A stretch of 64,000 nucleotides of DNA. It comes from Alphaproteobacteria bacterium. GTDB taxonomy: Bacteria > Pseudomonadota > Alphaproteobacteria > Bin95. The notes beneath the pieces are model-generated. The model was not told where the DNA came from, did not search any database, and saw nothing but the letters and a program-made list of their open reading frames with translations. Each line of letters opens with the position of its first letter. The first letter of the stretch is position 1. Of the stretch, positions 38,140 through 56,848 are shown piece by piece. The DNA lies in NCBI GenBank assembly GCA_965205265.1, contig CBDBGH010000003.1:544001-608000 (forward strand), written 5' to 3'. Both the position numbers and the translations under genes were made by a program.

Positions 38140-38355
38140 CCGGCCCGCTCTCGAAGCCGTCTCGACCACGCTCGAAGGCAAGACCGAAAAACGGAAAAAC
38201 CCATCCCGAGTTCGCTGGCCTTCGTCGCATGGGTCTGCGCACGCCATCGGTGGATGGACCGCATACCACGGTAAGCGATGCGGCAGGGGCACCTTCCGCT
38301 CGGTCTCGGGATTTGAGACTCCGCTACGTTCGGGAGGACGTAGAGGAGTTTCTCC

Positions 38356-38745
38356 ATGGAGCGCACTGCGGAGTTTCTCAGCCCGGTCGAGGTGATCGGT
38401 GGAGTGAAGGGTCGCCGTCGCTGGCCGGAAGAGTTGAAGGCGCGGATTGTAGCGGAGACGCTTGAGCCTGGCGCGAGGGTGGCCTCGGTAGCACGGCGTT
38501 ACGATCTTCGCCCAAGCCATCTGTCGGACTGGCGTCGCAAGGCGCGGGAGGGTCGCCTGGTTTTGCCTGCAGCGGACGAGGCAGTGGAGTTTGCGCCGCT
38601 GGTGGTCCGGGCTGAAGGGCACGGCGCCGAGGCGAACGGTGGGTGTCTGGAAGTGGTTCTGGACCGGGTTACGGTCCGTCTGGATGCGGCGGTGCCGGCG
38701 GGCCGGCTGGCGGAGATCGTGTCTGCGCTGAATGCGCTGTCATGA
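38356..38745 (+). CDS. tnpA: IS66 TnpA (HTH)
   Basis: RRRWPEELKARIVAE...VARRY. Confidence 0.9.
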   Translation: MERTAEFLSPVEVIGGVKGRRRWPEELKARIVAETLEPGARVASVARRYDLRPSHLSDWRRKAREGRLVLPAADEAVEFAPLVVRAEGHGAEANGGCLEVVLDRVTVRLDAAVPAGRLAEIVSALNALS

Positions 38746-39095
38746 TCTTCCCGTCGAACCGGGTGCGGATCGTTGTCGCAACGAAGCCCGTCGACTTCCG
38801 CCGCCAGCACGACGGCCTTGTCGCGCATGTGAAGGGCGCGCTGCGGCGGGACCCGTTCACCGGCACGGTATACGTCTTTCGATCGAGGCGAGCTGACAGG
38901 CTGAAGCTGGTCTTCTGGGACGGGACCGGGCTGGTGCTGATCTACAAGCGTCTGGAGGACCAGGGCTTTGTATGGCCGGCGATCCGCGACGGGGTGATGT
39001 CGCTGAGCCATGCGCAGTTCGAGGCCTTGTTCGCGGGCCTGGACTGGCGTCGCGTGCGGGCGCTGTCGGCGCGGCGCCCGGCTGAGGCGGAGTGA
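38742..39095 (+). CDS. tnpB: IS66 accessory protein TnpB
   Basis: PVDFRR, KLVFWDGTG, YKRLE. Confidence 0.92.
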   Translation: MIFPSNRVRIVVATKPVDFRRQHDGLVAHVKGALRRDPFTGTVYVFRSRRADRLKLVFWDGTGLVLIYKRLEDQGFVWPAIRDGVMSLSHAQFEALFAGLDWRRVRALSARRPAEAE

Positions 39096-39150
39096 CTCAG
39101 CCGGTGGATCGGGGCGTCCGGCTCCGCGACACTGTGCTACCAAGCGAGCC

Positions 39151-40752
39151 ATGGCTGCGCTTGCGGAGATCGACCTTGAAACGCTGACACCCGAACAGCG
39201 GGAAGCGGCGGTGCAGGCGATCATGGCGCTGGAGACGCTTCGCACCGAGAACGAGGTGTTGACGGACCGCAATGAGGCGCAGTCCGAGCGCATCCGCCGT
39301 CTCGAACACCTGGTGCGCGAGCTGCAGCGCGTTATCTACGGGAAAAGGTCGGAGAAGCTGACGGCGGACGAGCGCCAGCTGGCGTTCGAGGACCTTGTTG
39401 CGGCGGCGGAAGAGATCGAGGAAGCGATCACGCCGGCCGATCCGGCGCCGGCCCAATCGCCGAAGCGTCCTCGCCCGGCGCGCAATCTCGGCCATTTGCC
39501 GGACCACCTGGAGCGGATCGAGCAGGTGATCGAGCCGGAGAGCACGCTCTGCCCCTGCGGCTGCGGGGAAATGGCGAAGATCGGCGAGGATCGCACGGAG
39601 CGCCTGGACATCGTGCCGGCGCAGTTGCGGGTGATCGTCACGGTGCGCCCGAAATACGCCTGCCGCCGGTGTGAGGAAGGCGTGACCCAGGCGCCGGCGC
39701 CGGCCCGGCTGATCGAAGGGGCGCTGCCGACCGAAGGCGCTATCGCGCATGTGCTGGTCTCGAAATACGCCGATCATTGTCCGTTGCACCGTCAGACGCA
39801 GATCTATGCCCGCTCAGGCCTCGATCTGGACCGCTCGACGCTGGCCGGCTGGGTCGGCAAGGCCTCGTTCCACCTCAGGCCGGTGGTTGACCGCCTGGCA
39901 CGGCACCTGAAACGGTCGTCCAAGCTCTTCATGGATGAGACGCGGGCGCCGGTGCTCGATCCGGGCCGCGGCAGGACGAAGACCGGCTGGTTATGGGCGC
40001 TGGCCCGCGACGACCGTTCCTGGGGCGGGCCCGATCCACCGGGCGTCGTCTACTTCTACGCCCCCGGGCGCGGCGGCGAACATGCGGAGCGCTTCCTTGA
40101 TGGCTTCGACGGCATCCTGCAGGTCGATGGCTATGCCGGCTACAGCCGGCTGGCCGGACCGAGCCGCAAGGGCGGCGCGCCGCTGCGGCTGGCCTACTGT
40201 TGGGCCCATTGTCGGCGCCGGCTTCGCGAAATCCACGACAGCAGCGGCTCGGAAATCGCAGCCGAGGGCTTACGCCGGATCGCCGAACTCTACGCCATCG
40301 AGGCCGATATACGCGGCAGCCCGCCGGAGCTGCGCCTCGCCGAACGGCAAACGCGCTCCGCGCCCCTGGTCGAGGCCTTCGGCGAATGGCTGACGCAGCA
40401 GCGCGTCCGCGTCTCGCCCAAGTCCCGGCTCGGCGAAAAGCTCGCCTATATCGCCCGTCATTGGGACGGCCTCCGGATCTTCCTCGACGACGGCCGCGTC
40501 GAAATGGATAGCAATGCCGTCGAAAACAGCCTGCGGCCCGTGGTCCTTACACGGAAAAACGCCTTGTTCGCCGGTCACGACGACGGCGCCGCCGCCTGGG
40601 GACGCATAGCATCCCTCATCCAGACGGCGAAGTTGAACGAGGTCGAGCCACACGCCTGGCTCAAGGCCACACTCGAAGCCATCGCAGCCGGTCATCCCAA
40701 TGACCGCCTCGATGAACTGCTTCCCTGGAACTTCAAGCCGTCGTCAAGCTGA
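39151..40752 (+). CDS. tnpC: IS66 transposase TnpC
   Basis: CPCGC, KYADH, MDET, CWAH.RR, DSN.VEN, LLPW. Confidence 0.95.
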   Translation: MAALAEIDLETLTPEQREAAVQAIMALETLRTENEVLTDRNEAQSERIRRLEHLVRELQRVIYGKRSEKLTADERQLAFEDLVAAAEEIEEAITPADPAPAQSPKRPRPARNLGHLPDHLERIEQVIEPESTLCPCGCGEMAKIGEDRTERLDIVPAQLRVIVTVRPKYACRRCEEGVTQAPAPARLIEGALPTEGAIAHVLVSKYADHCPLHRQTQIYARSGLDLDRSTLAGWVGKASFHLRPVVDRLARHLKRSSKLFMDETRAPVLDPGRGRTKTGWLWALARDDRSWGGPDPPGVVYFYAPGRGGEHAERFLDGFDGILQVDGYAGYSRLAGPSRKGGAPLRLAYCWAHCRRRLREIHDSSGSEIAAEGLRRIAELYAIEADIRGSPPELRLAERQTRSAPLVEAFGEWLTQQRVRVSPKSRLGEKLAYIARHWDGLRIFLDDGRVEMDSNAVENSLRPVVLTRKNALFAGHDDGAAAWGRIASLIQTAKLNEVEPHAWLKATLEAIAAGHPNDRLDELLPWNFKPSSS

Positions 40753-40793
40753 AAGCCGGCTGCCTCGCCCGCACCGCATACCATGAAATGAAA

Positions 40794-42993: not shown

Positions 42994-43215
42994 ATGACCA
43001 AGGCACTGCATAAACTGGGTTCCACTGCGACGGCCGCCGTGAACGGCCGGCTCGCGGAAGCCGCGCACTTGCAGGCGATCGAGGGCAATCCGCTGACAGC
43101 GGAGGAGATCGCCATGTTCGAGATGTTCGAGCGCGAGGGATGGCCACCCGAGCGGCGCCGCGCCCATATCCTGAGCCGGATCAAGGACCGCGGCCGCACC
43201 GCCGCGGCGGAATGA
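42994..43215 (+). CDS. FicA/VbhA-like antitoxin
   Basis: 73 aa with LQAIEGN inhibitory-type motif; ATGA overlap with the Fic gene. Confidence 0.7.
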   Translation: MTKALHKLGSTATAAVNGRLAEAAHLQAIEGNPLTAEEIAMFEMFEREGWPPERRRAHILSRIKDRGRTAAAE

Positions 43216-43778
43216 GCGACCGCGACTACTGCTATCCGCCCGACTACACCGTTCTCCGCAACCTGCTGGACATCCGGGACGCCCCGGCGCTGGAAGCGGC
43301 CGAGCGCGAGTTGGTCGCCCAGCGCCTTCTTGAGACCGTGCCGGCGGGCGACTTCGATCTTGCCCACCTGAAGGCGATCCACCGCCATCTGTTCCAGGAC
43401 GTCTACGCCTGGGCGGGCGAGGTCCGCACAGTCGAGTTCGCCAAGGACGGGAGCCGATTCCAGCCGAGGCGGTTCATCGAGACCGGCATGGCGGACATCC
43501 ACCGCCGCATTGTGGCGGCCGGGTATTTCGCGGGGCTGGGGCCGGACGGGTTCGCCGGGGGTGCCGGCCCGGTGCTGGGCGACGTCAACCATGTCCACCC
43601 GTTCCGCGAGGGCAATGGGCGCACGCAGCTCCAGTATCTGAAGCAACTCGCCGCGCGCGCCGGGCATGTCCTCGACCTGACCCTGCTCGACCGCGCCGCC
43701 TGGCTGGACGCCTCGCGGCGGTCCAATACGGGCGATCATGCCGCCATGACCCGCTGCATCCGCTACGCGCTGATATAG
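43212..43778 (+). CDS. Fic family toxin (FicT-like)
   Basis: Y.YP...VLRN.L.IRD, IHRHLFQDVYAWAG..R, HPFREGNGRTQ. Confidence 0.9.
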   Translation: MSDRDYCYPPDYTVLRNLLDIRDAPALEAAERELVAQRLLETVPAGDFDLAHLKAIHRHLFQDVYAWAGEVRTVEFAKDGSRFQPRRFIETGMADIHRRIVAAGYFAGLGPDGFAGGAGPVLGDVNHVHPFREGNGRTQLQYLKQLAARAGHVLDLTLLDRAAWLDASRRSNTGDHAAMTRCIRYALI

Positions 43779-43995
43779 CCGACCGCGCTTTCATCCGCCG
43801 CCGTTGACGCTCACAGCACCCGACCGCCTCGCCTCCACCCGTGTTGCCGTCTCGTTGTCCTTGAGTGATCTCGCCGCCCGTCCGCTTCCCGCCGTCAAGA
43901 GGAGAGGTTTGGCCGTGAACGGGGCGGCGGTCGGGGCGTCCGTGGGAGGGTGTCCGGCTGCCGCTCATCATCACCGACAGGATGGAGACGGCACC

Positions 43996-44103
43996 ATGAC
44001 GGCAGCGATGGCAATACCCGGCAACACGGCGGAGACGTTCCTGGTTCATTTCTTCGGCACCGGCCTGGCCGACGACCGCTATGTGGTCGAACGCTACCGG
44101 GCC
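43996..44103 (+). pseudogene. 5' fragment of an unknown gene cut by IS66 type B
   Basis: GGAGA RBS, then MTAAMAIPGNTAETFLVHFFG... running into the IS66 end at 44104; no continuation found. Confidence 0.35.
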
Positions 44104-44192
44104 GTAAGCGATGGAGTGGACGCCCCTCCCGACGGCATCGCAATGTGCCAGGTTGACGGTGTTGTAAACGCCAAGAGAGGAAAGGGGCGTCC

Positions 44193-45215
44193 ATGGAACA
44201 GGTTAGCATGATCGGGATCGATCTCGCGAAGAACAGCTTTCAGCTTCACGGTGCGCGACCCGAAGGATCGGTCGCGTTCCGGAAGAAGCTGAGCCGGGGT
44301 AAGGTGCTGGGGTTTCTGGCCTCGCAGCAGCCCTGCACAGTTGCGATGGAAGCCTGCGGCGGCGCGCATCATTGGGGTCGTGAGATTGGGCGTCTGGGCC
44401 ATGCGGTGCGGTTGGTTCCGCCGGCCTACGTGAAGGCCTACGTCAAGCGACAGAAGAACGATGCGGCGGATGCGGAGGCGATCTGCGAGGCGGCATCGCG
44501 TCCGACGATGAGTTTTGTGGCGGTGAAGACGGTCGAGCAGCAGGCCCGTGGCATGCTGTTCCGCACGCGCGATCTGCTGGTGCGCCAGCGGACCCAGACG
44601 ATCAACGCGCTTCGCGGCCACCTGGCGGAGTTCGGTGTCATTGCTCCCCAGGGCCCGGTTCATGTCGAGCGTCTGGCGTCGGCGCTTGAAGACCCGGACC
44701 TGGATCTGCCGGATGCGGTCCGCGAGCTGGCCGGCCTTCTGTTGAACCAGATTGGCGGGCTTGGCGAGAAGATCGATGGCCTTGACGGGGAAATCCGGGC
44801 GGCGGCTCGGCAGGACGACGAGGTACGTCGTCTGATGACGGTGCCGGGGATCGGCCCGATCACTGCGATGGCGGTTCAGGCCTTCGCGCCGCCGATGGAG
44901 ACCTTCCGGCGCGGACGGGACTTCGCCGCCTGGCTCGGCCTGGTGCCGCGCCAGCACACGACCGGCGGCAAGCCGCGGCTGGGCAAGATATCGAAGATGG
45001 GCCAACGCGATCTGAGACGGCTGCTGATTACAGGCGCCATGGCGGTCGTTCGCTGGGCGGCTCGGCGCGGCAGGACGAACGATCCATGGCTTGCCAGGAT
45101 GCTGGCGCGCAAGCCGCGTATGCTGGTCGCCGTGGCGCTGGCCAACCGGATGGCGCGCATCGTCTGGGCGCTGATGATGAAGAAGGAGAGTTACCGGGCT
45201 CCCGCCGCCGCCTGA
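44193..45215 (+). CDS. IS110 DEDD recombinase/transposase
   Basis: GIDLAK, MEACG, KNDAADAEAI, PGIGP, AAWLGLVP..TTGGK. Confidence 0.95.
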   Translation: MEQVSMIGIDLAKNSFQLHGARPEGSVAFRKKLSRGKVLGFLASQQPCTVAMEACGGAHHWGREIGRLGHAVRLVPPAYVKAYVKRQKNDAADAEAICEAASRPTMSFVAVKTVEQQARGMLFRTRDLLVRQRTQTINALRGHLAEFGVIAPQGPVHVERLASALEDPDLDLPDAVRELAGLLLNQIGGLGEKIDGLDGEIRAAARQDDEVRRLMTVPGIGPITAMAVQAFAPPMETFRRGRDFAAWLGLVPRQHTTGGKPRLGKISKMGQRDLRRLLITGAMAVVRWAARRGRTNDPWLARMLARKPRMLVAVALANRMARIVWALMMKKESYRAPAAA

Positions 45216-45484
45216 CAGGGCGGCCGGACGGGTAGCTGTCGGGGACGCGGGCAGGTCTGAGGAAAGGCAAGGGCAAACGGTCAATCGAGACGGGATCGGG
45301 AAAACCAGTTCAGCTCCGCAGGGCCGTTGAGCTCGCGTAAGCGATTTGGACCCGGTCCGCGCATCTCCATGAGGGCCCGCGGCGCGTGACCTGCCGCATT
45401 GAGAGGCCGGACACACGACAGCGCCTGACCGCGCGCCGAGCCGCCCGAAGAAAATGCTTGCGTCACCAGGGGCGTCCACACACG
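45216..45484 (+). ncRNA. Candidate bridge/seek RNA region of the IS110 element
   Basis: Stem-loops plus segments matching the target (CGTAAGCG 45336-45343; CGCGCAT 45358-45364) and the donor junction (CTCCAT 45365-45370; ACACACG 45411-45417). Confidence 0.7.
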
Positions 45485-45550
45485 GGGCGAGCGGGGCACC
45501 TTCCAGGTTCGGTTCTGATTTGAGATTCACGCCTGCGAGTTGGGCAGGAG

Positions 45551-45955
45551 GTGAGTTTCACATTGTTGGGCTCAGTTGAGACACACAGGACGGTTGAAGT
45601 GCTTCCGGCGCGTGGCGGACGTCGTCGCTGGCCGGACGAAGTGAAGGCTCGGATTGTAGCGGAGACGCTGGAGCCTGGGGCGACGGTGCGCGCCGTTGCG
45701 CGGCGATACGATGTTCATTCGAACCAGCTGACGAGCTGGCGGCGTCTGGCGCGGGATGGGCGTCTTGTTTTGCCTGCGGCGGAAGCGGGCGTGGAGTTTG
45801 CGCCGCTTGTGGTGCGGGCTGAAGGGCGCGGCGGTGCCGAGGTGAGCGGCGCGCGTGTGGAAGTGGTCCTGGACCGGGTTACGGTCCGTCTGGACGCGGC
45901 GGTGCCGGCGGTCCGGCTGGCGGAGATCGTCTCTGCGCTGAACGCGTCGTCATGA
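45551..45955 (+). CDS. tnpA: IS66 TnpA
   Basis: Homologous to 38356-38745. Confidence 0.88.
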   Translation: MSFTLLGSVETHRTVEVLPARGGRRRWPDEVKARIVAETLEPGATVRAVARRYDVHSNQLTSWRRLARDGRLVLPAAEAGVEFAPLVVRAEGRGGAEVSGARVEVVLDRVTVRLDAAVPAVRLAEIVSALNASS

Positions 45956-46305
45956 TCTTCCCCTCGAACCGGGTGCGGATCATGGTCGCGACGAAGCCCG
46001 TCGACTTCAGGAAGCAGCACGACGGTCTTGTGGCCTATGTGAAGAGCGCGCTGCGCCGTGACCCGTTCACGGGCACGGTGTTCGTGTTCCGGGCGAAGCG
46101 CAGCGACAGGCTGAAGCTGATCTACTGGGACGGGACCGGCCTGGTCATGGTCTACAAGCGCCTGGAGGAGCAAGGCTTTGTGTGGCCGGCGATCCGGGAC
46201 GGGGCGATGACGTTGAACCATGCGCAGTTCGAGGCCTTGTTCGCGGGCCTGGACTGGCGTCGCGTGCGGGCGCTGTCGGTCAGGGCGCCGGCCGAGGCGG
46301 AATGA
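45952..46305 (+). CDS. tnpB: IS66 TnpB
   Basis: PVDFRK, KLIYWDGTG. Confidence 0.92.
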   Translation: MIFPSNRVRIMVATKPVDFRKQHDGLVAYVKSALRRDPFTGTVFVFRAKRSDRLKLIYWDGTGLVMVYKRLEEQGFVWPAIRDGAMTLNHAQFEALFAGLDWRRVRALSVRAPAEAE

Positions 46306-47714
46306 CTCACCGCACGGATCGCGGCCTGCGGCTCCGCGACACTGTGCTATCGGGTGAGCCATGGCTGCGCTTGCGGAGATGGACCTCGACACGCTGACGC
46401 CCGAACAGGCGGCGGCCGCGAGGCAGGCGCTTGCGGCGCTGGAGACGCTGCGTGCCGAGAACGAGACGCTGGCGGAAGAGAAGGCCTGTCTGGCGGGTGA
46501 GAACGAGGCGCAGGCCGAACGCATCCGCCGTCTGGAACATCTGAACCTGGAACTGATCCGGCTTCTGTATGGCAAGAGGTCGGAGAAGCTGTCGGCGGAC
46601 GAACGCCAGCTGGCGTTCGAGGAGCTTGAGGGCGCGTCTGCGGAGGTGGAGGCCGCGGCGCCGCCGGAAGACCCGTCGCCGGCGCGCTCGGCGAAGCGGC
46701 CTCGTCCGGCGCGCAATCTCGGCCATTTGCCGGAACACCTGCCCCGGATCGAGCAGGTGATCGAGCCGGAGAGCACGCTCTGCCCCTGCGGCTGCGGGGA
46801 GATGGTGCGGATCGGGGAAGATCGCGCCGAGAGGCTCGACATCGTGCCGGCGCAGTTGCGGGTGATCGTCACCGTGCGCCCGAAATACGCCTGCCGGACC
46901 TGCGAGGGAGGCGTCACCCAGGCGCCGGCGCCGGCCCGGCTGATCGAGGGCGCGCTGCCGACTGAAGGCGCCATCGCCCATGTTCTGATCTCGAAATACG
47001 CTGACCACAGTGTGTCCTGAAGCACCGCCATGAAAGGAGGTGCGCAACTGCAAGAGAGATGAGGGTAGGCCCCTCGGGGTCGACGATCAGGCGTCGGTCT
47101 CAAACCACCACGAGCTGCTGTCGTAAAGAGCGATGGTGGTGAGCGTCGTGGAAACGGCGGGACGACGATCTCGTCAGGTGAGGTCCGGGGAGACGAGCGA
47201 AAGCGAACCGCCGATGAACTGCCGAAAGCGTATGGTCGATGTCAGAACCGGGGGTGGTGGTCACTCCGGGATAAGCATGGGCGGAGTCCTGGAGTCCGGC
47301 CCACGCGGCATCCGGCTCGAAGGCGGCGTGAACCCGGAACAGGCTTTCTTGCGGAACAGGAGAACCTGTCGTCCCGATGCCAAGGGAGACGGCCAACCGG
47401 GCAGCCCCCGGAAGGCTCAGAGTACCGATGCGGGGCACAGGGGCAGAACAGCCTATAGCGCGACAATCTGGGTGAGAGCCGCGCGTCAATCAGGATGAGA
47501 TTCCCCGGCGGCATCGGCGAGTTGATGATTGTCGCGCGGGGCGCGGATTGCAAGCGGTTTCGGATTTTGATTGTCGCGGCGCGACAAACAAGGTTTTCGG
47601 AGAGCGTTTTGATTGTCGCGGGGGGGCCGTCGGGTCGGAGAAGAGACGGCCCGCGGAGGCGATTCCCGCGGGCCGTGAGTGTTGTGGCCGCTGGGCCGAT
47701 CTGGCGGCAGCGGT

Positions 47715-50062
<2,348 letters not shown>

Positions 50063-50344
50063 CTACTCGGAAAAACGTCACCGTTCGCCCAGCCGACCGA
50101 CCCCGCCAGAAGGTCCAGGAAAAATTTTTTGAGGCGGCGGCCCGGAACTCCGGTCGGGCTACGCCCTCCCTCCGTTCCGGGCCGCCGCCTTCCCCCGTCT
50201 CATCCTGATTGTCGCCAGCGTCTCAAGCTGATTGTCGCGCCGCAACAGCCCGTAGTAGGGATGAAGGCGCTGTAATGGCGCTGGACCGAAGGGGCTGTGG
50301 TGTTCAGCCGCTGCCGTCGGCCAACTGGTGACAGGAGGAGCCGG

Positions 50345-51604
50345 ATGACAGGGGCAAAGCCGTTCCCGATAGCAAAGAGGGAAGTCTGGGAAGCCTTCAA
50401 GCATGTGAAGGCAAACCGGGGAGCGGCTGGAGTAGATGGGCAGACGGTCGAGAGTCTGGAGGAACGGCTTGGTCCGGAACTCTACAAGCTCTGGAATCGC
50501 ATGTCCTCAGGCAGCTATATGCCGCCTCCGGTTCGCAGGGTGAACATCCCCAAGGAGGGCGGCGGGAAGCGCCCGTTGGGCATACCGACGGTCACGGACC
50601 GCATCGCTCAGGAGGTTGTTCGCCGACATCTGGAGCCCTTGTTGGAACCGATTTTCCATGAGGACTCATACGGATATCGGCCGAAGCGATCCGCCATTGA
50701 CGCCATCCGGACAGCGCGTCGGCGATGCTGGCGCTACGACTGGGTGCTGGACATGGACATCAAGGGGTTCTTCGACAACATCGACCACGAGTTGCTGCTG
50801 AAGGCCGTTCGTCACCATACGGACTGCCGGTGGGTGCTGCTCTATGTCGAGCGCTGGTTGAAGGCTCCCGTGATCGAGGAGGACGGCACCGTTGTCGCAC
50901 GGGACAGGGGCACGCCACAGGGCGGGGTAATTTCGCCAGTATTGTCCAACCTGTTCCTGCACTATGCGTTCGATCAATGGATGAAAAGGTCGATGCCGCA
51001 TGTTCCGTTCGAACGGTATGCGGACGATATAATCTGCCATTGTCGAACGGAGGAGGCGGCAAAGACCCTCTGGCGGCGGGTTGCGGACCGATTGGCCGAG
51101 TGCGGCCTGGAGGTCCATCCGCAGAAGACCAAGGTGGTCTACTGCAAGGATACCAACCGCAAGGCGGACTACCCGACGGTCGCGTTCGACTTCCTGGGCT
51201 ACCGTTTCCAGCCAAGGTTCGCGGCGTGGCGCGGCGGGTTGTTCGGGGTCTCGTTCCTTCCGGCTGCCAGCCCGACTGCGCTCAAGGCGTTTCGGCGCCG
51301 CGTGCGACAGTGGCGTTTGCAACGGCGTAGCGACAAGGCGCTGCTTGACCTTGCCCGCATGTTTCATCGCGAAATTGCAGGGTGGATCGGCTACTTCGGC
51401 GCATTCTACAAGTCGGCGCTCTATCCGACCCTTCGTCTGATAGACGCCCACTTGCAGCGATGGGCAATGCGGAAGTTCAAACGCTTCCGACAACGACCGC
51501 GTCAGGCTCGTCTCTGGCTTGCCAGAATCGCGAAAGCGGAGCCGTGGCGGTTCGCCCATTGGACCCTTTTGCACGGGCAGGGCCGGACGCTGGGAGCCGT
51601 ATGA
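50345..51604 (+). CDS. ltrA: Group II intron reverse transcriptase/maturase (no endonuclease domain)
   Basis: GAAGVDGQ, RPLGIP, GTPQGG, YADD; AGGAGG RBS; ORF ends inside domain V. Confidence 0.95.
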   Translation: MTGAKPFPIAKREVWEAFKHVKANRGAAGVDGQTVESLEERLGPELYKLWNRMSSGSYMPPPVRRVNIPKEGGGKRPLGIPTVTDRIAQEVVRRHLEPLLEPIFHEDSYGYRPKRSAIDAIRTARRRCWRYDWVLDMDIKGFFDNIDHELLLKAVRHHTDCRWVLLYVERWLKAPVIEEDGTVVARDRGTPQGGVISPVLSNLFLHYAFDQWMKRSMPHVPFERYADDIICHCRTEEAAKTLWRRVADRLAECGLEVHPQKTKVVYCKDTNRKADYPTVAFDFLGYRFQPRFAAWRGGLFGVSFLPAASPTALKAFRRRVRQWRLQRRSDKALLDLARMFHREIAGWIGYFGAFYKSALYPTLRLIDAHLQRWAMRKFKRFRQRPRQARLWLARIAKAEPWRFAHWTLLHGQGRTLGAV

Positions 51605-52778
51605 GCTGAGAGGTTCACGTACGGTTCTGGGAGCGCGTGGGGGTGAGATTCCCCCGCGCGACTCGCTCCCCGCTCTATCGTCAGAGCCGGATCTACGCCC
51701 GCTCGGGGCTGGAGCTGGACCGCTCGATCCTAGCCGGCTGGGTCGGCAAGGCGGCGTTCCACCTCGGGCCCGTGTATGACCGCCTGAAGGCGGCGCTGAA
51801 GACGTCGAACAATCTGGGTCTGGACGAGACCACGGTTCGGGTTCTCGACCCGGGCCGGGGCAAGACGAAGACCGGCTATCTGTGGACGATGGCGCGCGAC
51901 CAGCGGGCCTGGTCCGGGGCGGACCCGCCGGGCGTGGCGTATGAGTATGCGCCCGGGCGTAGCGGCAAGCATGGCGAGAGGCTTCTCGAGGGCTTCAGGG
52001 GAACGGTGCAGATCGACGGCTACTCCGGCCACAACCGACTGGCTCGGCCGAACCGGGCGGGCGGGGCGCTGACGCGGGCTGCCTGTTGGGTCCATGCCAG
52101 GCGGGGCCTCGAGACGGTGTTCGACAGCAATGGCTCGCCGATCGCGAAGGCCGGACTGGACCGCATCGCGCAGCTCTATGCCATCGAGAAGAAGATCCGG
52201 GGTAAGCCGCCGGCGACGCGCCAGTTCGTCCGCTGGACCGAGACCGCGCCGCTGGTGAATGCCTTCGGCCTGTGGCTCGCCGAGCAGCGCTCGCTCGTCT
52301 CGCTCAAGTCCCGGCTCGGCGAGAAGCTGTCCTATATCGCCAACCAGTGGGACGGGCTGCTGGTCTTCCTGCGCGACGGGCGCGTCGAGATGGACAGCAA
52401 CTTCGTCGAAAATCGCATCCGGCCGATCAAGCTCACCGCGAAAAACGCACTGTTCGCCGGCCACGACGAGGGCGCGCGCGCATGGGGCCGCATCGCCAGC
52501 CTCATCGAGACCTGCAAGATGAACGGCGTTGAGCCCTACGCCTGGCTCAAGGACACGCTGGAGAAAATCGCCGGAGCCTGCCCCTGCGAAGGCGGGGGGC
52601 CACCCCAACAGCCGCATCGACGACCTACTTCCCTGGAACTTCATCCCGCCGTCAAGCTGAAAGCCGGGTGCCCTTCGCGCACCGCTTACATACCACGGGA
52701 AACCCCGGACCCGTCGTCATGCGCCACGGCCTCTGTCAGGTCCGCGTCGTTCAACGCGGATACCGCATCAATCGGGAT

Positions 52779-53078: not shown

Positions 53079-56000
53079 TCACCACTCCCGCGATTCCTCG
53101 TCGAATACCGAGGTCGGCAGGGAGAAGGAGTGCTCGAACTGGCCGAGATCGGCGACAGCGAACATCTGCGAAAATCTGGCCCTGGACCTTCGCGCGGCCA
53201 GACGGGGAGCAGCCCTCCGGAGCATCTGGTCCCCGAAATTTCTCAACCGCAGGAACGGCAGTTCCCTGATCAGCCTGGAAGGAGGATACCTCAACCGGTC
53301 CGCCAGATCGTTGCCGATCAGTTCGCGGGACACCTGGTACATATAGGCGGCCATAGACCGGCGCGCCCCGGCCTCCGTTATTCCCAGAACGATCGGCGCG
53401 CTGTTGACGATACTGTTGGCCATGATCATCGAGTCTTCGTCGGGGGGAGGTTCGCACAAGGCCCCGATCTCGAATATGCGGGCCGACGAGGCGAAATCCC
53501 GGAACATGATCTCCTCGGGCACGCCCATGAGCGACCCCGCATATCTCCAGACATGCACATAGCCCTCCCGCTCTTCCGCGCTGAAATCGCCTCCGAGGTT
53601 CCCTACATGCTGCATAAGCCGCCCGGAAAAGGCCGCTGCGCCCAGCAGCATGTGCGCCGTGCTGAGCGGCAGTCCGTACTCCGACTCGTCGTAAGCGATG
53701 CGGCAGGGGCACCTTCCGCTCGGTCTCGGGATTTGAGACTCCGCTACGTTCGGGAGGACGTAGAGGAGTTTCTCCATGGAGCGCACTGCGGAGTTTCTCA
53801 GCCCGGTCGAGGTGATCGGTGGAGTGAAGGGTCGCCGTCGCTGGCCGGAAGAGTTGAAGGCGCGGATTGTAGCGGAGACGCTTGAGCCTGGCGCGAGGGT
53901 GGCCTCGGTAGCACGGCGTTACGATCTTCGCCCAAGCCATCTGTCGGACTGGCGTCGCAAGGCGCGGGAGGGTCGCCTGGTTTTGCCTGCAGCGGACGAG
54001 GCAGTGGAGTTTGCGCCGCTGGTGGTCCGGGCTGAAGGGCACGGCGCCGAGGCGAACGGTGGGTGTCTGGAAGTGGTTCTGGACCGGGTTACGGTCCGTC
54101 TGGATGCGGCGGTGCCGGCGGGCCGGCTGGCGGAGATCGTGTCTGCGCTGAATGCGCTGTCATGATCTTCCCGTCGAACCGGGTGCGGATCGTTGTCGCA
54201 ACGAAGCCCGTCGACTTCCGCCGCCAGCACGACGGCCTTGTCGCGCATGTGAAGGGCGCGCTGCGGCGGGACCCGTTCACCGGCACGGTATACGTCTTTC
54301 GATCGAGGCGAGCTGACAGGCTGAAGCTGGTCTTCTGGGACGGGACCGGGCTGGTGCTGATCTACAAGCGTCTGGAGGACCAGGGCTTTGTATGGCCGGC
54401 GATCCGCGACGGGGTGATGTCGCTGAGCCATGCGCAGTTCGAGGCCTTGTTCGCGGGCCTGGACTGGCGTCGCGTGCGGGCGCTGTCGGCGCGGCGCCCG
54501 GCTGAGGCGGAGTGACTCAGCCGGTGGATCGGGGCGTCCGGCTCCGCGACACTGTGCTACCAAGCGAGCCATGGCTGCGCTTGCGGAGATCGACCTTGAA
54601 ACGCTGACACCCGAACAGCGGGAAGCGGCGGTGCAGGCGATCATGGCGCTGGAGACGCTTCGCACCGAGAACGAGGTGTTGACGGACCGCAATGAGGCGC
54701 AGTCCGAGCGCATCCGCCGTCTCGAACACCTGGTGCGCGAGCTGCAGCGCGTTATCTACGGGAAAAGGTCGGAGAAGCTGACGGCGGACGAGCGCCAGCT
54801 GGCGTTCGAGGACCTTGTTGCGGCGGCGGAAGAGATCGAGGAAGCGATCACGCCGGCCGATCCGGCGCCGGCCCAATCGCCGAAGCGTCCTCGCCCGGCG
54901 CGCAATCTCGGCCATTTGCCGGACCACCTGGAGCGGATCGAGCAGGTGATCGAGCCGGAGAGCACGCTCTGCCCCTGCGGCTGCGGGGAAATGGCGAAGA
55001 TCGGCGAGGATCGCACGGAGCGCCTGGACATCGTGCCGGCGCAGTTGCGGGTGATCGTCACGGTGCGCCCGAAATACGCCTGCCGCCGGTGTGAGGAAGG
55101 CGTGACCCAGGCGCCGGCGCCGGCCCGGCTGATCGAAGGGGCGCTGCCGACCGAAGGCGCTATCGCGCATGTGCTGGTCTCGAAATACGCCGATCATTGT
55201 CCGTTGCACCGTCAGACGCAGATCTATGCCCGCTCAGGCCTCGATCTGGACCGCTCGACGCTGGCCGGCTGGGTCGGCAAGGCCTCGTTCCACCTCAGGC
55301 CGGTGGTTGACCGCCTGGCACGGCACCTGAAACGGTCGTCCAAGCTCTTCATGGATGAGACGCGGGCGCCGGTGCTCGATCCGGGCCGCGGCAGGACGAA
55401 GACCGGCTGGTTATGGGCGCTGGCCCGCGACGACCGTTCCTGGGGCGGGCCCGATCCACCGGGCGTCGTCTACTTCTACGCCCCCGGGCGCGGCGGCGAA
55501 CATGCGGAGCGCTTCCTTGATGGCTTCGACGGCATCCTGCAGGTCGATGGCTATGCCGGCTACAGCCGGCTGGCCGGACCGAGCCGCAAGGGCGGCGCGC
55601 CGCTGCGGCTGGCCTACTGTTGGGCCCATTGTCGGCGCCGGCTTCGCGAAATCCACGACAGCAGCGGCTCGGAAATCGCAGCCGAGGGCTTACGCCGGAT
55701 CGCCGAACTCTACGCCATCGAGGCCGATATACGCGGCAGCCCGCCGGAGCTGCGCCTCGCCGAACGGCAAACGCGCTCCGCGCCCCTGGTCGAGGCCTTC
55801 GGCGAATGGCTGACGCAGCAGCGCGTCCGCGTCTCGCCCAAGTCCCGGCTCGGCGAAAAGCTCGCCTATATCGCCCGTCATTGGGACGGCCTCCGGATCT
55901 TCCTCGACGACGGCCGCGTCGAAATGGATAGCAATGCCGTCGAAAACAGCCTGCGGCCCGTGGTCCTTACACGGAAAAACGCCTTGTTCGCCGGTCACGA

Positions 56001-56848
56001 CGACGGCGCCGCCGCCTGGGGACGCATAGCATCCCTCATCCAGACGGCGAAGTTGAACGAGGTCGAGCCACACGCCTGGCTCAAGGCCACACTCGAAGCC
56101 ATCGCAGCCGGTCATCCCAATGACCGCCTCGATGAACTGCTTCCCTGGAACTTCAAGCCGTCGTCAAGCTGAAAGCCGGCTGCCTCGCCCGCACCGCATA
56201 CGACTCGTCCCACTCCTCCGTCTGCCTTATCAGCCGTCTCGCCTGGGCGTGGATCAGGCGGATCCTGATGCTCAGCCTCCAGCCGTCGCCGCCCGGAAGG
56301 ATGCCGCCGGGCATGTATTGGTCCAGGAGTTGCGCCAGGTTCTGTTTCAGCCGGCGAACGCCATTCTCGACGATCCTGCTCCTGATGCGGAACGACTTGC
56401 TGATCAGGGTCGAGAAGCCCTCGATGATCGCGCCTCCGACAAGCGCCCCGAGCACCATGTCGGAGTTACGCAGAAAGCCCCTGGTCGCCGCGGCGGCAAG
56501 CCGCTCGTCGAACCAGTCCGGAGCGTCGGCCAGCTTCGCCACGAAACTGCGCAGGCAGTCCGGGAGGTCCTTCGGGACGTCGCCGGAACTGTTGAGCGCC
56601 CTCGCCACGATTCCGTGGACTTCGCCCGGCGTGTACCGCTCCGCCAGCTCGGCCACCACCTCGTCGCCGGAGGGATCGCCGATGACAGTGTGGCGGACAT
56701 AAAGGTCGGCCACATCGCGGTCCGCCTTGCGGGCTGCCTCGTATCCGGCGACGTAGCAGGACGGAACGGGCGCGGCGGACACCCCGTCGAAGCCCGGTAA
56801 ACGCGGATCGTCCGTTCCTCGGAATTGTCTCGTGCCGGTTCCTGCCAA
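53079..56848 (-). pseudogene. Oxygenase MpaB/DUF2236 family gene disrupted by IS66
   Basis: 5' part (RLIHAQARR..WDES) and 3' part (EYGLPLS..HVWRYAGSLMGV) join in frame across the GACTCGTC TSD. Confidence 0.8.
53691..56201 (+). mobile_element. IS66 type A, copy 2 (tnpA 53776-54165, tnpB 54162-54515, tnpC 54571-56172)
   Basis: Same length and same encoded proteins as copy 1; 8-bp TSD GACTCGTC at 53683-53690 and 56202-56209. Confidence 0.97.

Follow-up and report, generated by a model that had tools for sequence, protein, structure and literature searches.

A probable RNA-guided IS1111-group element aimed at the GTAAG-CG terminus of IS66 elements in an alphaproteobacterium

IS4321 and IS5075 are IS1111-type elements with subterminal repeats. 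Their insertions fall within the terminal repeat of a second transposable element, the 38-bp repeat of Tn21, always at the same point and facing the same way. Work on the bridge RNA of a further element, IS621, was reportedly carried out by Hiraizumi and colleagues in 2024. In the IS1111 group itself, the seekRNAs of ISEc11, ISKpn4, ISPst6 and ISPa11 have been purified and reprogrammed experimentally (Siddiquee et al. 2024, PMC11187229). In the parts of that paper drawn on here, these RNAs are encoded in the 3' non-coding region, their top-strand match (T) lies 5' of the bottom-strand match (B) with the two overlapping at the insertion point, and their targets are a linear site, attC and REP. 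The same parts describe natural redirection through guide-segment replacement (ISEc11 versus ISXne4) and the conventions of the group: terminal extensions of 7 bp (left) and 3 bp (right), no true target duplication, and transposases of 330-350 aa with a GL-P----S/TG motif. IS621, as far as the portions of its description used here go (Durrant et al. 2024, PMC11208160), has a bispecific RNA with a target loop (left and right target guides, LTG and RTG) and a donor loop (left and right donor guides, LDG and RDG), a shared core dinucleotide (CT) and a circle-junction promoter; its RNA is encoded upstream (5') of the gene, in the left end.

The locus described here lies in a window of 64,000 nt (the whole stretch of DNA that was analysed). 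Like IS4321/IS5075, the element it holds is of the IS1111 type, has subterminal repeats and occupies a fixed point, in a fixed orientation, of the terminal repeat of another mobile element. Unlike them, its target is the IS66-family GTAAG|CG, its sequence, CG core and host group (alphaproteobacteria) are different, and its guides are assigned by covariation only. With the published IS1111 elements it shares the extensions, the transposase size and motif, the 3' position of the RNA, the order of T and B, and redirection through guide replacement; it differs in its target and in being known from sequence alone, and our alignment adds a resolved donor loop to the target matches described for those RNAs (PMC11187229). 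With IS621 it shares the two-loop bispecific plan, the core dinucleotide and a putative circle-junction promoter, whereas its RNA is 3' of the gene, its guide order is reversed (RTG before LTG, RDG before LDG), its core is CG, its subterminal repeats are long and its RDG does not pair with the core (PMC11208160). Taken as a whole, an RNA-guided IS1111 element aimed at the IS66 GTAAG-CG terminus is a very probable explanation of the sequence comparisons below. It adds a new case to a mechanism already described (cf. IS4321/IS5075 on Tn21 ends) rather than a mechanism of its own. In the literature searched, we found no mention of IS1111 elements being targeted to IS66 ends: IS66 occurs 0 times in the three bridge-RNA papers, and papers naming both IS1111 and IS66 do not, going by their titles and the openings of their abstracts, deal with targeting; the supplementary target logos and tables of PMC11187229 and PMC11208160 might contain such a case. 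The initial annotation of this DNA had proposed a bridge-RNA-programmed IS110 element; its IS66-end site and its LTG, RDG and LDG stand, with the IS1111 group as a refinement, and its right target guide and candidate targets do not.

We derive boundaries, core, RNA fold and the covariation of guides with targets and donors from comparison with relatives. Boundaries were set in 73 loci of fetched relatives, of which 67 show the core dinucleotide again at the right junction. The parts of the element are:

44109..45482, + strand: IS1111-group insertion sequence, 1374 bp including the left CG core copy
44109..44115, + strand: left terminal extension CGATGGA (core CG plus ATGGA), 7 bp
44116..44127, + strand: left subterminal inverted repeat GTGGACGCCCCT
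44184..44193, + strand: subterminal repeat present a third time, inverted (GGGGCGTCCA) and overlapping the ATG of the transposase gene
44193..45215, + strand: DEDD transposase gene, 340 aa, with the GLVPRQHTTG (GL-P----TG) motif
45216..45482, + strand: 3' non-coding region, 267 nt
45458..45463, + strand: outward-facing -35-like hexamer TTGCGT, 17 nt from the junction hexamer CACGAT once circularised
45468..45479, + strand: right subterminal inverted repeat AGGGGCGTCCAC
45480..45482, + strand: right terminal extension ACA, 3 bp

Judged by these features, the element is a member of the IS1111 group of the IS110 family, the family to which it had first been assigned. Its DEDD (RuvC-like) transposase carries the Pfam domains PF01548 (N-terminal, E 2.7e-14) and PF02371 (C-terminal, E 4.2e-24), and its length and motif are those of the group. 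The subterminal repeats GTGGACGCCCCT and AGGGGCGTCCAC are perfect over 12 bp (about 11-13 bp in IS1111 elements), and the extensions are asymmetric, as is typical of the group. There is no true target duplication: the duplicated CG is the core, and one of its copies is part of the element. The long non-coding region lies downstream of the transposase gene, again as in IS1111 elements (267 nt 3' of the stop codon versus 84 nt 5' of the ATG). The third repeat copy, found with at most one mismatch in 21 of 62 distinct relatives, could form a hairpin with the left repeat. TTGCGT is followed by 17 nt and then by CA plus the left-end CGAT; TTGCnn occurs at the equivalent distance in 49/62 distinct elements and the junction hexamer nAnGAT in 61/62. 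By analogy with ISEc11, ISKpn4, ISPa11 and IS621, this putative circle-junction promoter, TTGCGT-N17-CACGAT, would drive the guide RNA. The strings cited in the initial annotation, this one included, all lie where it had placed them. In the plasmid collection, 931 records carry distant relatives under the bare label 'IS110 family transposase', with no element name or target given, and none of them is near-identical.

The insertion site and its IS66 surroundings comprise:

44104..44108, + strand: GTAAG, the five outermost nt of the left terminal inverted repeat (IRL) of IS66, which form the left target arm
45483..45507, + strand: target copy of the core CG plus inner IS66 IRL (GGGCGAGCGGGGCACC...), the right target arm
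45551-45955, + strand: IS66 ORF1 (HTH_Tnp_1)
45952-46305, + strand: TnpB_IS66
from 46361, + strand: N-terminal part of TnpC (zf-IS66, LZ_Tnp_IS66); IS66 homology breaks at 47009
51668..52689, + strand: 3' part of an IS66 (DDE_Tnp_IS66 and IS66_C domains), with the right repeat (IRR) ...CGCTTAC ending at 52689

The IRL is split at GTAAG|CG|GGGCGAG, with the CG core at both junctions. This split, already read in the same way from the letters alone, is confirmed because empty IS66 IRLs of the same genome read GTAAGCGGGGCGAGCGGGG. The target element has an HTH ORF1, TnpB_IS66, a TnpC (zf/LZ/DDE_Tnp_IS66) and, as read from the second full copy described below, GTAAGCG repeats and an 8-bp duplication, all as expected of IS66, and we take GTAAGCG to be the family-typical terminus. 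The IS66 3' part at 51668-52689 is 94% identical to an intact copy elsewhere in the genome. An 8-bp duplication apparently shared by the IS66 ends at 38271 and 52689 was dropped, since the tip of an adjacent IS66 repeat makes up half of the match.

Two further occurrences are found in the host genome: a second full copy, 100% identical, at C3:2334329, and a left-end fragment of 94 nt, 95% identical, at C3:432577-432670, which forms a third GTAAGCG junction. The left flank differs at each of the three occupied junctions. Copy 2 is a complete IS66::IS1111 composite (IRL GTAAGCG..., IRR ...CGCTTAC) with a perfect 8-bp target duplication, GCGAAATC. The identity of the two full copies extends over 1525 bp of IS66, and both may therefore go back to one insertion event that was copied rather than to two. 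This identity, together with the duplication around the composite, would also fit a purely historical link, in which one chance insertion was copied along with IS66 and the guide matches are a captured target or a coincidence. Such a history is very hard to reconcile with the diverged fragment at a third GTAAGCG junction, with junctions of four other genomes in different IS66 subtypes (both IRR and IRL), and with relatives whose guides, at equivalent positions of the RNA, differ in keeping with their different targets; we regard it as highly unlikely. Altogether, GTAAG|CG junctions occur with 10 distinct left flanks in 5 genomes, those outside the host genome being in G008, G010, G016 (twice) and a MAG (three times), and one metagenome run adds one further left flank. 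The flanks of relatives L038 and L018 encode IS66 transposase C-termini. The earlier proposal that the lineage is aimed at the GTAAGCG terminus, which called for a look at the flanks of other copies, is thereby upheld.

An RNA that could direct such insertions is predicted within the 3' non-coding region, from a 46-sequence alignment of that region in the relatives:

45279..45430, + strand: predicted seekRNA/bridge-RNA core, with alignment-based helices P1-P5
45279-83/45426-30: helix P1
45293-300/45351-58: helix P2
45321-24/45331-34: helix P3
45374-77/45405-08: helix P4
45379-83/45393-97: helix P5

In the predicted five-helix fold, 96.4% of the alignment cells are paired (22-43% in slid controls), compensatory changes occur in 18 of 26 pairs, and 0/500 shuffled alignments scored as high. 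The target and donor loops share one design (guide, hairpin, guide), and the guides sit unpaired in the consensus. The segment CCTGCCGCAT (45390-45399), suspected earlier to be a mere stem arm, is indeed the 3' arm of P5. Folded as a lone sequence, the region gives z = +0.55, with 140 of 200 shuffles folding at least as well, and the minimum free energy structure pairs parts of both target guides with each other. A scan of 43500-46000 against Rfam at E <= 1 gave no bridge/seekRNA family match; one snoRNA-like match inside the coding region was set aside as chance. Sequencing runs were covered as Logan contigs of four runs, and one RNA-library contig (X20, 336 nt) covers 44102-44328 of a relative about 93% alike, outside the non-coding region. 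Among the joints listed for these contigs, none corresponded to an empty site or to a circle.

The guide segments of the predicted RNA are:

45313..45319, + strand: right target guide (RTG, T-guide) GCTCCGC, at the position that covaries with the right flank in relatives
45336..45344, + strand: left target guide (LTG, B-guide) CGTAAGCGA, a 9-nt match to its own site
45365..45370, + strand: right donor guide (RDG) CTCCAT, complementary to the left-end ATGGAG (44111-44116)
45411..45418, + strand: left donor guide (LDG) ACACACGA, matching the right end ACACA, the core CG and the first left-end base

The LTG is made up of the flank base C, GTAAG, the CG core and then one more base, the first of the left end of the element. 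It had been proposed as CGTAAGCG (45336-45343), equal to the target left arm plus core, and is now extended by A; among 32 targets, its own is alone at so high a score. The RTG pairs with the top-strand GCGGGGC of the IS66 IRL over 7 bp, one of them G-U; against the 29 other target classes, 8 score 5-7, two of those also 7. Across 30 target classes, guide segments covary with the target as in seekRNAs, a check that the initial annotation had asked for. The own-target guide score is 15.6 versus 8.69 +/- 0.39 with targets permuted, a value reached in 0/20000 permutations, and in 24/30 classes no other target scores as well as the own one. Own and other targets average apart in both guides (T 8.34 versus 4.95; B 7.59 versus 3.36). 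The variable segment that follows the right flank is 45309-45320.

This position bears directly on the earlier choice of CGCGCAT (45358-45364) as RTG, with the type B IRR (A/G)TGCGCG as its aim and unoccupied ends at 38271, 52689 and 53691 as candidates. The segment is complementary to ATGCGCG/GTGCGCG-like arms, which are present at 52689(-). However, relatives with unrelated targets carry GCG[C/T]AT there too, which marks it as scaffold (it forms the 3' end of P2 and begins the donor loop), and right flanks covary with 45309-45320 instead. We therefore give this wiring next to no credence. Since the RTG was mis-assigned, the listed candidates are poor targets: 38271 and 53691 read GTAAGCGATGCGG... 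and 52689(-) reads GTAAGCGGTGCGCG..., so that they match the LTG only, and GCTCCGC pairs there over no more than the core and adjacent base(s).

The donor guides agree with the earlier reading. The LDG, first given as ACACACG (45411-45417, right end plus core) and now extended by A, equals its own junction as a 7-mer in 43/62 elements, covarying over at least 9 junction types. For the RDG 6-mer, here CTCCAT, 36 of the 62 distinct elements show full pairing with the left end that they carry; CCAT/ATGG is nearly invariant, the covariation is mixed, and the core lies outside the guide. Donor segments of the kind known from seekRNAs and bridge RNAs are thus present, the RDG with these limits.

Comparison with close relatives indicates that the GTAAGCG guide is kept while RTGs are re-tuned to other IS66 end variants. 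For example, the element at 44109-45482 combines this LTG with the RTG GCUCCGC for a GGGC arm, relatives L037-39 (94% aa identity) combine the same LTG with CCGGACGC for a TCCGG arm, and L018 combines it with CGUACUGC for a GTGCG arm. The three right-arm variants come from three genomes. These cases also weigh on recognition by protein alone, in which the transposase would read the IS66 repeat and the non-coding region would serve, for example, transposase binding or mRNA stability. The subterminal repeats are likely protein-binding sites, which would suit it. Yet transposases 94% identical go with different right arms, the matching changes fall only in the RNA segment, the fold is backed by compensatory changes, and the published IS1111 elements require a seekRNA, as described in the parts of PMC11187229 used here. 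We hold recognition by protein alone to be very improbable.

If the RNA-guided reading is right, the DEDD transposase would be directed by a seekRNA/bridge RNA made from the 3' non-coding region, with the outer stem P1 enclosing two binding loops. In the donor loop, CUCCAU and ACACACGA would recognise the two element ends where they meet in the excised circle (...ACACA-CG-ATGGAG...). Recombination at the CG core that donor and target have in common would then insert the element 5 bp into the GTAAGCG end of a single IS66 subtype, in a single orientation. Production of the RNA, its binding to the transposase and its role in guiding strand exchange are carried over from the published work on ISEc11, ISKpn4, ISPa11 and IS621.

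The copies might also be inactive relics whose guides are no longer relevant. In the host genome, two IS66 IRLs that match the guides stay unoccupied, as do four non-IS66 sites with the same 7-bp RTG match and GTAAGCG, and sister genomes have fragments or a stop-bearing copy only. Against this stand two identical copies with the 340-aa ORF, repeats and guides intact, and we consider decay to this degree unlikely, if less so than the other alternatives.

For IS66, an insertion 5 bp from the tip could cripple the end; alternatively, the composite could stay mobile, and the IS1111 element would ride on IS66. The new left terminus, GTAAGCGATGG..., has its first 10 nt in common with the genome's commonest IS66 repeat type. 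The 100%-identical composites, one with a perfect 8-bp duplication, would be compatible with a composite that still moved after insertion. IS66 elements presumably cannot alter GTAAGCG without loss of their own transposition. A lineage of dedicated IS66 parasites, its LTG fixed on GTAAGCG and its RTG evolving quickly after the variable inner repeat, is a possibility that we put forward tentatively. More broadly, the locus offers a clean natural case of bridge/seekRNA retargeting, in which a constant guide stays on an invariant terminus and the other guide is swapped. The covariation-supported fold for this alphaproteobacterial IS1111 clade, with target and donor loops assigned, is of use for RNA annotation and target prediction, and IS66 ends can be added to the few transposon termini that IS1111 elements hunt.

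Two observations concern further relatives. In a sponge-metagenome variant (X5), differences cluster at 45309-45328 and the LTG is unchanged. In relative L040 the target is the seekRNA region of the clade to which it belongs, which suggests that element-against-element targeting is common in the group.

The window element extends from 44109 to 45482 (1374 bp, counting one CG copy as the element's own) and is organised around these features:

44193-45215: DEDD transposase ORF, 340 aa, with two Pfam domains typical of IS110-family DEDD transposases
44116-44127 and 45468-45479: perfect 12-bp subterminal inverted repeats that bound the element

Outside the repeats, the left end is extended by 7 bases (CGATGGA) and the right end by 3 (ACA); such asymmetric terminal extensions are given as an IS1111-type trait in PMC11187229. 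Directly 3' of the element, Pfam identifies three IS66 genes, namely HTH ORF1, TnpB_IS66 and TnpC (N-terminal part only). This IS66 subtype also has empty sites in other parts of the genome, which read GTAAGCGGGGCGAGCGGGG, so the insertion is GTAAG|CG|GGGCGAG, with CG at the left and right junctions. The initial annotation had proposed this split of the IS66 left terminal repeat (IRL), which the empty sites bear out, and every string it quoted lies where it was placed. An IS66 repeat split in this way should be defective. An inverted third copy of the subterminal repeat (44184-44193) overlaps the transposase start codon, and with the left repeat (44116-44127) it could form a hairpin that, in transcripts reading through from outside, masks the ATG and its ribosome-binding site; the third copy occurs in 21 of 62 distinct relatives (at most one mismatch). 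The interrupted IS66 end is closely preceded by an ORF with a Fic/DOC domain (43140-43778, Pfam E 2.8e-11).

Among relatives, 93 loci with a full-length transposase match were examined. A subterminal repeat pair was found in 76, of which 73 allowed the element's boundaries to be defined. At the right junction, 67 of the 73 repeat the core dinucleotide (CG, TG or AG); the six exceptions are L008, L011, L071 and L079-81. When the non-coding regions of 46 distinct elements are aligned (the window element, 22 loci selected through anchors and 23 through position, with L113 and L115 excluded as too divergent), a conserved scaffold emerges with variable segments between. The RNAalifold consensus of these 46 sequences contains five helices, with 96.4% of cells paired and both-side changes at 18 of 26 pairs, and none of 500 shuffled alignments reached the real one on any measure. 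Pairing falls to 22-43% when partners are slid by 1-3 columns, a control that is partly circular because the structure came from the same alignment; the compensatory counts are the stronger evidence for the fold. No Rfam model matches the RNA region, and the single-sequence fold of the window RNA is unremarkable. The predicted parts of the guide RNA (seekRNA or bridge RNA) are:

45279-83 and 45426-30: helix P1
45293-300 and 45351-58: helix P2
45301-20: target loop, 5' strand
45321-34: P3 hairpin
45335-50: target loop, 3' strand
45359-73: donor loop, 5' strand
45374-45408: P4/P5 hairpin
45409-25: donor loop, 3' strand

The segment CCTGCCGCAT, earlier suspected to be a stem arm, is the 3' arm of P5.

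In the relatives, the variable segments follow the insertion sites. The first is the reverse complement of the core plus right flank, and the second is the left flank plus core plus A; we call them the right and left target guides (RTG and LTG, or T and B guides), the former terms as used by Durrant (PMC11208160). Three loci illustrate the pattern.

Target guides and insertion sites of three relatives
L009: AGAGCCGGGG and GACCCCGA; target ...GACCC|CG|GCTCT
L029: TATGTGGCAT and GGATATGA; target GGATA|TG|CCACAT
L037: CCGGACGC and CGTAAGCGA; target GTAAG|CG|TCCGG

Across 32 distinct variable regions, the mean longest match is 8.34 (T) and 7.59 (B) for the element's own target versus 4.95 and 3.36 for unrelated ones. 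Since relatives are not independent, they were collapsed to 30 target classes, with one element per class. Guides covary with targets: the mean score is 15.6 for own targets and 8.69 +/- 0.39 when targets are permuted (0 of 20000 permutations as high), and in 24 of the 30 classes no other target scores as well as the own one. In the window element, the RTG is GCTCCGC (45313-19), pairing over 7 bp, one of them G-U, with top-strand GCGGGGC, and the LTG is CGTAAGCGA (45336-44). Their order, RTG 5' of LTG, is that published for IS1111 seekRNAs in PMC11187229.

The RTG fits the occupied IS66 subtype. CGCGCAT (45358-64), initially read as a target guide, covers the last P2 base and the start of the donor loop; its position reads GCG[C/T]AT in relatives with unrelated targets and it is therefore no target guide. 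The in-window IS66 ends that had been put forward as candidate targets are poor ones, as the RTG mismatches at the first arm base of 38271 and 53691 (right arm ATGCGG) and at the second of 52689(-) (right arm GTGCGC). Among 269 GTAAGCG sites in the genome, six are unoccupied with 7-nt RTG pairing: two are IRLs of the matching subtype (C3:2338768 and 2391749) and four have no IS66-end likeness.

The donor loop behaves likewise with respect to the element's own ends. In 43 of 62 distinct elements, covering many junction types, the 7-mer that follows P4 is identical to the right end plus core plus A; the 6-mer that precedes P4 is fully complementary to the left end in 36 of 62, CCAT/ATGG being almost invariant. 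Both bottom-strand guides carry an additional A behind the core, which presumably mirrors the 'handshake' pairing of IS621. For the predicted circle junction, 49 of 62 relatives have TTGCnn at a constant spacing and 61 have the junction hexamer nAnGAT. By analogy with ISEc11, ISKpn4, ISPa11 and IS621, as described in PMC11187229 and PMC11208160, the element would excise as a circle whose abutted ends form a promoter; the transcript would supply both transposase and RNA, and the RNA would pair, on either side of the CG core, with the two strands of the donor as well as those of the target.

The same junction recurs in other genomes. A pattern search of 37 genomes of the order found the left junction in G008 (one), G010 (one) and G016 (two), each time with a different left flank, and in a search covering a single genome for each species, a 94%-identical transposase turned up three times within one alphaproteobacterial MAG, always at GTAAG|CG|TCCGGT. 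The right flanks of L038 and L018 encode, on the opposite strand, an IS66 transposase C-terminus (DDE_Tnp_IS66, IS66_C), which places these insertions in right-end repeats. For L037 and L039, the ORFs searched gave no Pfam match; the right flank of L039 agrees with that of L038 over about 120 bp, and L037 only over the first 8 bases. Altogether, 10 distinct left flanks in 5 genomes occur at the identical position of a GTAAGCG terminus, plus one more in a metagenome run. At L118 (G010:C1, around 525785), a left-end remnant of ~140 nt is fused directly to an IS66 right-end repeat (GTAAGCGGTGCGGGAG...); the joint is a 13-nt stretch, CAGCTTTCAGCTT, that occurs both in the 5' region of the transposase gene and in the sub-terminal region of IS66, suggesting deletion between short homologies.

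The window's genome holds two full, identical copies. Their left flanks diverge from the base before CGTAAGCG onward, but 1525 bp of IS66 are 100% identical between the copies. Outside the window, copy 2 (C3:2334333-2338255) forms a complete IS66::IS1111 composite with a perfect 8-bp duplication, GCGAAATC, on both sides. These identical composites would fit movement of the composite as well as two separate recent insertions into sister copies of IS66. A third junction is a 94-nt left-end fragment, 95% identical, directly after GTAAGCG. Further IS66 left ends directly beyond copy 2 (C3:2338299 and 2338775) mark an IS66 pile-up region. In the window copy, IS66 homology stops at 47009 and restarts at 51668 (94% identity); the intervening 4.66 kb of other mobile DNA (47010-51667) contains, from about 47452, a repeat that occurs ~30 times in the genome, as well as an ORF for a group II intron-type reverse transcriptase/maturase (50297-51604). 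Compared with the intact copy, the 5' part of this split IS66 is 100% identical and the part beyond the insert only 94%. A second IS66 subtype is present as two identical 2511-bp copies (38271-40781 and 53691-56201; the latter with duplication GACTCGTC), with left repeat GTAAGCGATGCGGCAG... and right end ...CGCATAC. No other IS66 end type is as frequent in the genome (17 GTAAGCGATGCGG sites), and the left junction newly created by the IS1111 insertion matches the first 10 nt of this type.

At the sequence level, the window element and its predicted seekRNA have all the defining features of the IS1111 group and its seekRNA. Like IS4321/IS5075, known to target another transposon's terminal repeat, it inserts in such a repeat; a literature search, with supplementary target tables outside it, found no report of IS66 ends as an IS1111 target. 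Two features are of moderate interest: right guides that form a natural retargeting series around a single unchanged left guide, and a relative directed at its own clade's seekRNA region. This relative, 85% identical (L040:1480-2900, alphaproteobacterial MAG contig), is inserted at GGGCAAA|CG|GTCAATCGAGACGGGATCGGGA, a site within the conserved 5' portion of a seekRNA region that belongs to a different element of the clade. Its guides, TTGACCG and GCAAACGA, match this site, and thus one IS1111 element targets a relative's guide-RNA gene. A sub-clade of 70-75% identity (L009, L010, L024-L027, L032, L033, L070) always sits at GG(A/G)CCC|CG|GCTC, in most loci with GGCCGGGG(C/T)GAC a few bases downstream in the right flank; in those genomes the target resembles a mobile-element end or a repeated palindromic (REP-like) one.
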